Positions 32,973 to 37,707 of a DNA stretch of 64,000 nucleotides are shown here, in pieces. Both the position numbers and the translations under genes were made by a program. The stretch spans positions 27,776,001 to 27,840,000 of the forward strand of contig NC_043006.1 of assembly GCF_006345805.1 (NCBI RefSeq), given 5' to 3'. The notes below the pieces were generated by a model. That model was not told the origin of the DNA. It worked only from the letters and a program-made list of their open reading frames with translations, and did no database searches. This stretch comes from Octopus sinensis (lineage: Eukaryota). Position 1 is the first letter of the stretch. Each line of letters begins with the position of its first letter.

Positions 32973-32973
<1 letters not shown>

Positions 32974-33401
32974 CCTAAGGTTACAGAACAAACAAATGCA
33001 AGGTCATCCACATAACATTTCATATCTCGAACATTTAATCATAGAATGTACATTTATGACATCATGGAAGATGAAACATAACTCATCTGTACAAGCATAT
33101 AAGAAAGTGCGAGAAAAATGTGTGAATACAGTTCATCACGGTTAATGTTCATACTTTAGCGATTAAGAAATATATATTTTTTAAAAAACATTACAACATA
33201 TATATTTCTTAATCGCAAAAGTATGAACATTAACCGTGATGAACTGTATTCACACATTTTTCTCACACTTTTTATATGCTTGTACAGATGAGTTATGTTT
33301 CATCTTCCGTGATGTCATAAATGTATATTCTATGATTAAATGTTCGAGATATGAAATGTTATGTGGATGACCTTGCATTTGTCTGTTCTGTAACCTTAGG
33401 T
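32973..33401. repeat. Long foldback palindrome (arms ~205 bp, 20-nt spacer)
   Basis: 32973-33177 is the reverse complement of 33198-33401 with a handful of substitutions and one indel. Confidence 0.95.
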
Positions 33402-33507
33402 TGATATATTTGTCTCATTCAATTGAGCACTTCTATAGCAGTCCTATAAAACATTTTGTTCCTGATAAGAAACAATCACTGTATTATTGATATATATATA
33501 TACACAC

Positions 33508-33540
<33 letters not shown>

Positions 33541-33842
33541 GATGTATATATGTCTACACATATATGTAGATGTATTAAGATGAAGCATACTTGGAAATGG
33601 ACGTGTGGCATTCGATCATATAACACAGAGTAGATAAAGTAGATAAAACAGGGAACACCTGATGAAGGGAATGATCTTTATGTTGCCTGTCTTGGTCCTC
33701 TATTTGTTTCTTTCATTGTTCGAAAAAATGTTAATTTTCTATGTTTATGTTCTCATTTGTTTACATCTTTTTGAAGACCTGTACCCACATATACAAGTAT
33801 ATATAGATATTTATACATATATATATATATATATATATACAC

Positions 33843-34151
33843 ACAATTATATGTTACATTACTCGATAGTCAAGATAAAACTCTTGAGTTTCAGATGCCG
33901 AAGTGGGAATCCACGACATCTCTTTGGTTATTTGGCTATTTGAAAACGCTATATCTTTTCTGTAGAAGTTTCTTAGAGTAAAATTCCTTTGATGGGATCG
34001 GTGTATTTTTCATAGAATAATCTATGTGATATGCATCCAGATATAGTGTTTTCAAATAGCCAGATAACCGAAGAGATGTCGTGGATTCCCACTTTGGCAT
34101 CTGAAACTCAGAGTTTTATCTTGACTATTGAGTAATGTAACATATAATTGT
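33843..34151. repeat. Second foldback (arms ~114 bp, 82-nt spacer)
   Basis: 33843-33956 is the reverse complement of 34039-34151 with few mismatches. Unrelated in sequence to the first foldback. Confidence 0.93.
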
Positions 34152-34221
34152 ATAGATAAATTTCCTCTATTTACATAATATTGAGGTCTCTTTCTTTCTT
34201 TTGTTATCTTACCGTTTTATC

Positions 34222-34257
34222 AATATATATATATATTATATATTATATATATATATA

Positions 34258-34327
<70 letters not shown>

Positions 34328-34347
34328 GTGTTATGTGTGGGTGTATG

Positions 34348-34396
<49 letters not shown>

Positions 34397-34413
34397 GTGT
34401 GTGTGTGTGTATG

Positions 34414-34446
<33 letters not shown>

Positions 34447-34460
34447 ATGTATATATATAT
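34222..34460. repeat. (TA)n/(TG)n microsatellite
   Basis: Directly visible. Confidence 0.95.
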
Positions 34461-34651
34461 GAATATTTGAGTAGTTGAATGAATTATCTTGTTATGGATA
34501 ATTCGGTTAACCGATACCTGGGTAGCAAATTCACATCAGAGAAGACACGTTTGAAGTTACGTGCTTTCGTGTGGAAATTTGTATGTTTTTTTTAAAAAAT
34601 ATAAATATATGAAAGAATGGAGTTGAACGATGAATTAACGAAATTCCTTTA

Positions 34652-34734
34652 TTTTCGACATATGTTTCGAAGGCTGCATATTCCTAATTGCGAAGGAATA
34701 AGGAGTATATTATGCCGCTTTCTCATCAGGAAAA
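34652..34734 (-). ncRNA. Type I hammerhead ribozyme (HHR-A), predicted GUC cleavage between 34657 and 34656
   Basis: Minus strand reads uuuuc-CUGAUGA-[gaaagcggcaua...uaugcagccuuc]-GAAA-cauaug-UC-gaaaa. Stem I is 5 bp, the core is intact, G10.1-C11.1 is present, and stem III is the palindrome ACAUAUGU. Confidence 0.85.
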
Positions 34735-34843
34735 GCAAGGAACTTATGTCAACATCAAGATGCACAAAAAACTTTTTTTTTCACTATGGGCTCCATATGA
34801 GCAGTCATCTAAAAGTTTCATATATTTCTTTCATATATTTATA

Positions 34844-34876
<33 letters not shown>

Positions 34877-34882
34877 GTATAT

Positions 34883-35058
34883 AGGTGCAGGAGTGGCTGT
34901 GTGGTAAGTAGCTAGCTTACCAACTTCATGGTTCCGGGTTCAGTCCCACTGCATGGCATCTTGGGCAAGTGCCTTCTGCTATAGCCTCGGGCCGACCAAT
35001 GCCTTGTGAGTGGATTTGGTAGACGGAAACTGAAAGAAGCCTGTCGTATATATGTATG

Positions 35059-35089
<31 letters not shown>

Positions 35090-35238
35090 ATATGTTTGTG
35101 TGTGTGTTTACGTCCCCGTCACTTAGCGGTTCGGCAAAAAGAGACCGATAGAATAAGTCTCGGGGTCGATTTGCTCGACTAAAGGCGGTGCTCCAGCATG
35201 GCCGCAGTCAAATGACTGAAACAAGTAAAAGAGTAAGA
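34883..35238 (+). mobile_element. tRNA-derived SINE family 1 (CORE-like), well-preserved copy
   Basis: A-box-like gtggctgtgtggt, B-box-like gggttcagtccc, CORE-like cttgggcaagtg, then a microsatellite and the 3' module ending gaaacaagtaaaaga. Confidence 0.85.
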
Positions 35239-35385
35239 GTATATATATGTATATGTGCATATATATGTATGTATATATGTGTATGTATATATATGTGCGT
35301 GTGTATATATATATGTATATATATGTGTATGTATGTATATATATGTATATATGTGTATGTATGTATATATATATGTATATATGTG

Positions 35386-35416
<31 letters not shown>

Positions 35417-35583
35417 GTGTATGTATATATATGTATGTATATATATATGTGTATATATGTATGCATATATGTGTATATATATATGCATATATGTGTATAT
35501 ATATATTTATATATATATTTGTATATATGTATATATATAAGTGTATATATATATGCATATATGTGTATATATATATGCATATA

Positions 35584-35636
<53 letters not shown>

Positions 35637-35645
35637 GCATGCATA
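35239..35645. repeat. Compound TA/TG/TATG microsatellite
   Basis: Directly visible. Confidence 0.97.
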
Positions 35646-35649
35646 CCTT

Positions 35650-36020
35650 TCCTTCTGGGGACACAAAACTCTACTTGTGAAGACCTGTTGAGGCAAGTGA
35701 GAAACGAAATCGATCAACATCAATGGAAATTGCAGCTGTGATGCTGGTAACAAGCTGGCCTTCATGCCGATGGCATGTTAAACACGCCATTCGAGCGTGA
35801 TCATTGCTGCTTCGCCTTCCTAGCACTTGTGCTGGTGGCACGTGAAACATTCAAGTGAGGTCGTCGCCAATGCTGCTGGACTGGCTCCTGTGCAGGTGGC
35901 ACATAAAAAGCACCATTTTATATATTTACCATGAAACTGGCCCTCGTGCCAGTGGCACGTAAAAGCACCCACTACACTCTCGGAGTGGTTGGCGTTAGGA
36001 AGGGCATCAAGCTGTAGAAA
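35650..36020 (+). mobile_element. RTE-tail family fragment
   Basis: gtggcacgtaaaagcacccactacactctcggagtggttggcgttaggaagggcatc. Confidence 0.75.
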
Positions 36021-36023
36021 CAC

Positions 36024-36057
<34 letters not shown>

Positions 36058-36239
36058 TTTTGTTATTCCTTACTTTATTCGTGTAACTTTTTATCTTTAT
36101 TTGAATTTTTATCTGAATTATGGCTTGTACTGTAGAGTCCAGTGAAACTAATTCAAACATACCTAATTTAAACATACTTAAGGGTTTAAAAAAATTAAAA
36201 TATAGTTTATTGTATTGAACGTTGATGAAGTTATATAAG

Positions 36240-36334
36240 GGCCTGATGATTGGGGTAGTATCTTAAGAGGGGTTCCAGGGAAACACGGAGTGGTTTAGGA
36301 ACCCGAGGATGTACCTCATGAAACACGTGTTGCC
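36240..36334 (+). ncRNA. Type I hammerhead ribozyme (HHR-B), predicted GUU cleavage after 36331
   Basis: ggc-CUGAUGA-[~70-nt rod: uggggua/uaccuca, uaucuu/aggaug, ggguucc/ggaaccc]-GAAA-cacgug-UU-gcc. Stem III is the palindrome ACACGUGU. Stem I is only 3 bp and 10.1/11.1 is a U-U mismatch. Confidence 0.72.
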
Positions 36335-36449
36335 AAGTAATAAAACAGTAGGCATTTAAAATAAAAATTCTTTTTATTTGGTGAGATGTAGGGGTCTACT
36401 ATCTCTAAATTAAAATATATATAAGTATTTAATCTATTTCTATTCGTAT

Positions 36450-36511
36450 TTTCTACTGAAGAGGAAAAAATCTATTATGAGATTAATTCCGAAATAGATT
36501 CAATATAGAAA
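36450..36511 (+). ncRNA. Type I hammerhead ribozyme (HHR-C), predicted AUA cleavage after 36505
   Basis: uuucua-CUGAAGA-[ggaa aa aaucu auuaug agauu aa uucc]-GAAA-uagauucaa-UA-uagaaa. Stem I 6 bp, stem II 4+5 bp, stem III weak with one A-A mismatch. Confidence 0.68.
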
Positions 36512-36626
36512 TAACGAACTTTGTATTCAGTAGTGGGTATAATAATATGTGGAAATTGATGATTGAAAAGTCTGTTTTCAGCATATTGATATAGAAATAA
36601 TTTTCTTTTGCCCTTGTTTATAAGTT

Positions 36627-36676
<50 letters not shown>

Positions 36677-36771
36677 CGGAAGGTTTACGAAAATAAACAA
36701 AAAACGAAGGCAGGTGGAGTACAAACAAACAAATGTATTAGTATGGCGCTCAGGAATAGAAATAGAACAAG

Positions 36772-36809
36772 TCTTTTACGTTTTGAGCCTACGCTCTTAG
36801 ACAGAAAGA
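36772..36809 (-). ncRNA. Decayed minimal hammerhead (HHR-D)
   Basis: ucuuu-CUGUCUA-a-gagc guag gcuc-AAAA-cg-UA-aaaga. Stems I and II are intact, but the core has several substitutions, so it is probably inactive. Confidence 0.5.
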
Positions 36810-37707
36810 TACACAGAAAAAAAAACAAGGAGAGAAAAAAAAGGAGAGAAACAAGGAGAGAAAAAAATGCGTGTAGGAGCTAACGATCTATCACGGCGTT
36901 CCATGATATATATATATATATATATATATAAATAGTAATTAGGAGATAGAACTGGAAGGAAAGGTGTGGAAACAGAATGAAGAAGGAAAAGGTACAAAGT
37001 AATTTCTGCTTTGTCTATAGAAGGGAACTGCTAAATAGATGTGGTCTTCTAAGATATGAAAGAGTAATATGTAATGAATAGAGAGCAGTTGAAAGCTGTG
37101 TGGCCTTTCTCAGTATACAAGAAACATGTCCACTATACTGATAGGAAAACAGAAATTAAATAAAGAGTGGTATGTTATGTAGCTAAACAGGTATATATGG
37201 TTGTTGTAGGAGTTGTTTCTGTAACATCATGAATTAATTATTTCAATGCTGAACTTCTAACTGAAAGATAGAAAACAAAACCCCTTTAGATTTACCTCAC
37301 TGACAAGGTTTAATTCTTATGAACTACAGGTTACAATGCCAGGAGCAGAAGAAGCATACATGATATTTAACTATAATAATGGTTTTACTGCCTTAATAAT
37401 AATAATAATTAGAAGAATAACAAATGACATCATAAACAGTCAAATTTGTTACTTGAGGTCTCTAGATGAAATCTGGAACAATTTGTATAAAACAAAGCAC
37501 CAATAAAATAGTAATAATAATAATGTTAAAAATGGAGGATATAGCAAACAAGCCTCAGTTTGACTATCAAGCATTGCAGTGCTTGCTTAGATCAGGGATC
37601 ACAAAACTTTTCAGTAGCACAGGCAACATTTTCTAAAAACAAGACATTATTGATGTACAACAGATGTTAATTTAATGCTATTATTGCACTCCAGTTGATC
37701 TACAAAA

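Follow-up and report, generated by a model that had tools for sequence, protein, structure and literature searches.

The window analyzed here is a 64-kb stretch of Octopus sinensis DNA in which a cluster of hammerhead ribozyme motifs and long hairpins (32973-36810) lies within an intron of Abi, the gene encoding Abl interactor. This cluster very probably consists of short, piled-up ends of Penelope-like elements (PLEs) from five families, accompanied by a relative without an open reading frame (ORF) and by one unassigned repeat, in a (TA)n-rich patch of the intron. Most of the cassettes are best read as 5'-truncated 3' ends (pseudo-long terminal repeats, pLTRs) of autonomous PLEs, because longer copies reach PLE coding sequence. 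The locus itself is ordinary repeat debris. Its value is as a pointer to tens of thousands of PLE hammerheads in the octopus genome that are missed by Rfam, to several Hydra families whose open frames are long, to natural core variants fixed family-wide, and to H3, a unit without an ORF that ties retrozymes to insertion of the PLE type.

Hammerheads, hairpins and repeat families of the cluster

Hammerheads were called with a descriptor of the type I fold, consisting of the CUGANGA, GAAA and UH core and three helices, at strict and relaxed settings. The strict descriptor gave three matches in the window (HH1, HH2, and HH3), all inside the cluster and at the places where the first-pass annotation, made from the sequence alone, had put three hammerheads with complete cores. 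That annotation described a fourth, HH4, as decayed, which agrees with a comparison to the H4 family, and it overlooked both a variant fifth hammerhead in hairpin 2 and the repeat H7 (Table 1). The relaxed scan added one weak match, at 58027. No strict match was found in 300 dinucleotide shuffles of 32973-36810, and the motif density is thus not matched in shuffled sequence; when microsatellites were removed, a single match appeared in 2 of 300 shuffles. Nothing in the window reached the Rfam gathering score, and no Rfam hammerhead was found at E<=10 in 32500-37500. When the monomers were folded without constraints, the hammerhead was not the minimum-energy structure for any of them.

The two long hairpins reported in the cluster were also found, and both are near-perfect. 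Hairpin 1 (32973-33400) folds at -327 kcal/mol and hairpin 2 (33843-34152) at -211 kcal/mol. Each is made up of a tailed sense copy and an inverted copy lacking the tail, an arrangement described for PLEs (PMC8557442). The hairpins are standard inverted 5'-truncated PLE copies. Inverted PLE ends supply long intronic hairpins, which are a plausible source of double-stranded RNA. Octopuses belong to an animal group in which A-to-I editing is known to be heavy.

Searches of the species' own genome (2.72 Gb) showed all cassettes to be high-copy repeats. The first-look candidates, which are lower bounds, numbered at least 3045 for H1, 560 for H2, 1380 for H3, 1793 for H4, 1891 for H5 (hairpin 2), 644 for H6 (hairpin 1), and 2339 for H7, with 40 scored per family. 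H1 is a young family, its candidates showing 97-98% identity. Copies have a fixed 3' end followed by (TA)n, the 5' side is variable in H1, H2, H5, and H6, and many loci have a partial copy in inverted orientation or a direct tandem beside them. The copy searches and the 3' ends at (TA)n bear out the proposal that several unrelated, (TA)n-associated retroelement families with hammerheads are present.

Core conservation was assessed in the 29 best-matching copies per family, a sample biased toward the window copy. An intact core pattern was found in 23 of the 29 copies of H1, 25 of H2 and 23 of H3, and the family variant core of H4 was kept in 8 of 29. The free position 7 of the H3 core was A in 19, C in 7, T in 1, and G in 1 of 28 parsed copies. 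Among 11 hand-picked hammerheads of the H1 lineage, 89.9% of cells pair, compared to 35-53% in slid controls, and both sides had changed in 8 of 21 pairs (compensatory change); these sequences are related, so that the shuffle figures are not probabilities, and covariation was counted for the H1 lineage alone. Conservation of the cores and covariation among genomic copies are thus present, and on this sequence evidence the hammerhead motifs are confirmed as genuine.

Some deviations from the canonical core are family-wide. HH2 has a U opposite a U at 10.1-11.1, which is shared by 25 of 26 parsed H2 copies. The H5 family has C4 and an extra U before G12, and the H4 family has U6 and an extra A after A9. 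The HH3 copy in the window has an altered stem III and a deletion of ~45 bp just 3' of the hammerhead.

Table 1. Features of the cluster and of the Abi gene in the window.
Feature	Position	Strand	Remarks
HH1	34657-34729	-	Complete core; cleavage triplet GUC; palindromic stem III ACAUAUGU
HH2	36243-36331	+	Complete core; cleavage triplet GUU; stem III ACACGUGU
HH3	36456-36505	+	Complete core; cleavage triplet AUA
HH4, decayed minimal hammerhead	36772-36809	-	G8 and G12 changed relative to H4 family
Variant fifth hammerhead, in hairpin 2	34068-34115	+	C4 and an additional U ahead of G12
H6, inverted 5'-truncated tail-less copy	32973-33174	-	Left arm of hairpin 1
H6, 3' end of Hydra-type PLE	33190-33490	+	~85-bp tail; truncated past the family hammerhead, so no ribozyme
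H7, high-copy repeat	33638-33790	+	CUGAUGA half core; no complete hammerhead
H5, inverted 5'-truncated tail-less copy	33843-33954	-	Left arm of hairpin 2; G5 changed to A in its core copy
H5, 3' end of Hydra-type PLE	34041-34215	+	~64-bp tail; contains the variant hammerhead
H1, pLTR of young Hydra-clade PLE (by motifs)	34465-34776	-	Contains HH1; short inverted upstream piece ~34782-34818
H2, 3' end of Hydra-type PLE	36076-36410	+	Contains HH2
H3, truncated and internally deleted copy of ORF-less ~510-bp head-to-tail unit	36419-36633	+	Contains HH3
H4, 3' end of putative Neptune-type PLE	36679-36906	-	Mostly a short ~220-bp piece; contains HH4
Abi intron with cluster	30113-44762 (ends approximate)	-	tblastn of octopus Abi protein P0003
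Abi exons	50347-50168, 49384-49187, 45218-44763, 30112-29843, 28532-28359	-	tblastn, P0003
Possible optional Abi exon	42726-43007	-	Proline-rich open stretch; absent from P0003

Parent elements

Longer copies of H1, H2, H5, and H6 were found to run collinearly upstream into Hydra-type coding sequence, in agreement with the suggested tie to a Penelope reverse transcriptase (RT). A single ORF with RT and, at the C terminus, a GIY-YIG endonuclease is present in H1 (L340, L342, L348) and H5 (L316), and for the H2 and H6 parents the stretch reached is the C-terminal endonuclease part. The H1 parent has the organization pLTR-ORF-pLTR with one frameshift in L348, and frames of 756-923 aa are open in its sister subfamilies (150 of 7776 candidates scored). 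L318, L319, and L324 have 1.5 kb in common that ends in a Hydra-type endonuclease ~1.1 kb upstream of the H2 cassette. In L173/L316 the RT and endonuclease lie immediately upstream of H5, while the H6 parent L317 has a 420-aa frame ending in the endonuclease, a hammerhead at 5930 and the window-matching part from 6259. For one PLE of the window Pfam gave a weak GIY-YIG match.

The Hydra clade is marked by the lack of CCHH, by CxxC and CxH around the conserved E and N, by a CxCX5C linker, by an RWK motif and by DKT instead of DKG (PMC8557442). All four parents lack CCHH and have CxxC and CxH flanking the conserved E and N. The CxCX5C linker was found in the H2, H5, and H6 parents, whereas the H1 lineage has an Asn-rich spacer in its place; SDKT and IRW(L/V) were found in L340, L342, and L344 of this lineage, in which the third RWK residue differs. 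The Hydra-type families carry the hammerhead in the pLTR and insert in (TA)n. By these motifs the parents of H1, H2, H5, and H6 are Hydra-clade PLEs, with H1 as an apparent Hydra-like variant lacking the linker. Many Hydra-like copies (e.g., L342:2713-5430, L343:2770-5493, L345:2889-5630) were seen to have ~900-aa open frames, the Asn-rich spacer where the CxCX5C linker would stand and near-identical hammerheads, and they would form a young, possibly active subfamily. A Naiad PLE was considered and rejected: Naiad has an N-terminal endonuclease and no canonical hammerhead, while here the endonuclease is C-terminal and hammerheads are present.

For H4, 4 of 29 copies have common upstream sequence and 2 of 29 reach an ORF; most other copies begin within ~30 bp of one point. 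The parent (L321) has a CX4CxxC linker and, at the C terminus, a GIY-YIG with CCHH-type residues, and it is probably Neptune-type by its motifs, Nematis being also possible. Elsewhere in the window, degenerate Neptune-type PLE copies with RT, CX4CxxC linker and GIY-YIG were seen at 53921-55757 (+) and 62665-63933 (-); their DNA shows 68-71% identity with that of L320, an H4 parent. No parent ORF was found for H7, whose copies were not walked upstream.

Origin of the cluster and relation to Abi

The pile would have arisen by insertions one after another into the (TA)n-rich patch. As expected from published PLE biology, the element endonuclease would nick AT-rich DNA, the RT would start at either of two RNA-internal sites to give ends with or without a tail, and it would stop early, truncating the 5' side, and often leave an inverted second copy. 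The pLTR hammerhead would serve the RNA of the parent transposon, probably as a dimer or together with an element protein. The (TA)n flanks that persist at each insertion may then cause the patch to attract more.

Density was compared to 60 arbitrary 10-kb stretches of the same genome (599,800 bases). These contained 11 strict hammerheads, or ~1 per 55 kb, and none after one shuffle of each stretch. Extrapolation gives ~50,000 hammerheads genome-wide (95% range 25,000-89,000). The expected number per 3.8 kb is 0.07 and the probability of three or more is 5.5e-5, corresponding to ~39 such stretches in the genome if hammerheads are independent; the cluster is locally dense and probably not unique. 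Runs of (TA)n number 68 per 10 kb in the patch, compared to 12.7 in the arbitrary stretches and 3.0 elsewhere in the window. Beside 164 anchored copies, ends of other families occur at 0.38 per 10 kb, vs. 0.17 in the arbitrary stretches. The local density is genuine, and (TA)n targeting accounts for part of it; seven families within 4 kb are still at the extreme end. The (TA)n excess may be an effect as well as a cause. The arbitrary stretches (L256-L315) also contain hammerheads of other families that are not related to these seven and that have a long stem II and a palindromic stem III (e.g., L260:7177, L266:1139, L278:7866, L302:6998).

Several points weigh against an origin as piled-up, truncated PLE ends. 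The clumping is only modest and below what seven families in 4 kb needs, and one arbitrary stretch has 71 (TA)n runs with no such pile. The common 5' boundary of H4 would suit truncation and a short non-autonomous derivative equally well, and H7 stays outside the PLE assignment.

The position of the cluster within Abi, as proposed in the first-pass annotation, follows from the tblastn exon map, with Abi on the minus strand. Exon 50147-50335 matches PDB Abi2 chains (E 2.8e-15) and is a 98% match to an Octopus vulgaris Abi protein, the one mapped to the five exons; Pfam did not recognize the Abi exon peptides. A look-up of sequencing runs listed no RNA run containing an Abi exon. Comparison of strands put three features alone in the sense of the Abi pre-mRNA, namely HH1, HH4 and hairpin 2's inverted arm, and showed HH2, HH3 and the H5 hammerhead to be antisense.

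HH1 is intact, young and Abi-sense, and both hairpins are predicted on either strand, so that the cluster might have been kept for Abi regulation, with HH1 cutting the pre-mRNA or the hairpins acting as double-stranded RNA in control of editing or splicing. We consider this improbable. HH1 is a single motif with no second copy in the window, its palindromic stem III is loop-less, and its minimum-energy fold is not the hammerhead. The window copies of HH3, HH4 and the inverted H5 carry damaging changes relative to their families. PLE hammerheads studied in the literature are weak on their own: a lone minimal motif from a PLE gave no cleavage (PMC4209133), and a PLE hammerhead from Anolis cuts only with its protein, is dispensable for insertion in vitro and leaves no RNA-seq read ends (PMC11167929). 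An effect on Abi by cleavage is unlikely because of these properties of HH1 and the published weakness of such ribozymes alone, and the window copies are likely passive for Abi because HH1 alone is both intact and Abi-sense and has no partner. The earlier suggestion of an effect on Abi pre-mRNA is unsupported by one intact sense ribozyme that is single and of a dimer-dependent type.

Slightly less probable still is that every cassette is a retrozyme-like, non-autonomous element in its own right, with Penelope RT mobilizing it in trans. H3 fits such a description, being a head-to-tail unit without an ORF, most H4 copies share a 5' boundary, and the best matches are mostly short copies. The variable 5' ends of H1, H2, H5, and H6 and their collinearity with PLE coding sequence refute it for these four families, and in H4 the few longer copies, some of which reach a Neptune-type ORF, speak against it. 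The view of the first-pass annotation that the families are non-autonomous appears to hold for H3, fails for H1, H2, H5, and H6 and probably fails for H4.

A chance origin of the motifs in AT-rich repeat DNA, or an assembly artefact behind the cluster, finds some ground in the missing Rfam match and the microsatellite-rich region and is next to negligible in view of the shuffles, the arbitrary stretches (real vs. shuffled), the family-wide conservation and the compensatory changes.

The ORF-less H3 unit and known systems

Beside the PLE ends stands H3, in whose copies a unit of ~510 bp is repeated head to tail, with a tail of ~104 bp that may be lacking. The start of the unit was reached in 26 of 52 distinct loci (a second H3 search favored tandem copies). 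As judged by eye in these 26 loci, the unit start is preceded by the unit's own end in 23, by 7-9 matching bases in 2 and by other DNA in 1. No common non-unit upstream sequence was found. The longest stop-free frame in six units was 50-81 aa, and no ORF-bearing parent was found among the copies examined. H3 insertions have a PLE-type tail, inverted truncated copies and TA flanks, and stem III of the family hammerhead is 4 bp long. L355 contains a diverged tandem of the H3 kind. A motif resembling a splice donor, GTAAGT, was seen ~35 bases upstream of the H3 hammerhead (L209:1700-1712; window 36419-36425). PLEs keep introns near the pLTR.

In two raw RNA runs, 113 and 96 reads fell on the H3 copy L209:1440-2065, on both strands. 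Their starts and ends formed no pile, and almost all were partial matches from a diverged family of another organism. That organism's RNA reads thus contain an H3-like family, and the H3 unit is probably older than Octopus sinensis.

From its sequence H3 looks like a non-LTR retrozyme with PLE-type insertion marks. Our tentative suggestion, somewhat short of an even chance, is that it is a retrozyme moved by a Hydra-clade PLE protein, in which stem III could allow cutting of the monomer and release of circular RNA. The same genome has an estimated ~50,000 hammerheads along with intact Hydra ORFs of ~900 aa, and PLE mobilization of retrozymes would then be directly testable. With its PLE-type marks, H3 accords with the PLE origin that has been argued for non-LTR retrozymes (Li et al., 2026; 10.64898/2026.07.22.740005). 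No paper on a non-autonomous Penelope with a hammerhead was found in our literature search.

Like the non-LTR retrozymes described by Cervera and de la Pena (2020; PMC7229834) and Li et al. (2026), H3 is an ORF-less head-to-tail unit with a type I hammerhead and low GC. It differs from these descriptions in its ~510-bp unit, compared to reported circles of 170-400 nt, in its partial tandems of one to two units instead of long arrays, and in its PLE marks (the ~104-bp tail, inverted truncated copies and TA flanks).

The Hydra-type families resemble the Hydra-clade PLEs of Craig et al. (2021; PMC8557442) in the C-terminal GIY-YIG without CCHH, DKT, the RW motif and CxxC/CxH, as well as in having a hammerhead in the pLTR, inserting in (TA)n and showing tails and truncated copies in inverted orientation. 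The H1 lineage departs from that description by lacking the CxCX5C linker, by its long Asn-rich spacer and by its size of >3 kb. Hydra-1_Obim from Octopus bimaculoides has a hammerhead and a (TA)n preference (PMC8557442 supplement), and Hydra PLEs with both are thus already published for an octopus. By eye the RT of the H5 parent is close to that of Hydra-1_Obim (PMC8557442 supplement); compared to that published element, several more families are present here, at high copy and with some frames near 900 aa, and the hammerhead differs (PMC8557442).

The H4 parent is like Neptune-type PLEs in its CX4CxxC linker, CCHH-type endonuclease and minimal hammerhead, in which A9 is followed by one more A and stem III is ACGU, and unlike them in the family core U6 and in occurring mostly as a piece of ~220 bp that favors one 5' boundary. 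The window hammerheads are similar to the minimal metazoan PLE hammerheads of Cervera and de la Pena (2014; PMC4209133), being of type I, with a stem II that is long and a stem III that is palindromic, and occurring mostly singly in truncated PLEs, with some opposite-strand pairs 100-700 bp apart. The family-wide non-canonical cores of H2 (U-U at 10.1-11.1), H5 (C4), and H4 (U6) set them apart from that description. A repeat annotation of Octopus vulgaris lists 31 recently active Penelope-like families, and its main text does not mention hammerheads (PMC13282606). The H3 unit may be unreported so far, as may the core variants that are fixed and how many families there are.

Other repeats were seen in the window. 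Interspersed repeats lie between the cassettes (34885-35235, 35650-36020) and at 15798-16105, 19833-19935, and 47356-47577; they include a family with a ~63-bp unit (D20) and are probably octopus elements similar to short interspersed nuclear elements. Degenerate RT fragments of the long interspersed nuclear element type, mutually inverted, are found at 39445-41475 (-) and 9986-10443. Remnants of mariner-type transposases are located at 12610-13320 (+) and 10893-11563 (+), the former matching Transposase_1 with an E of 1.3e-25.

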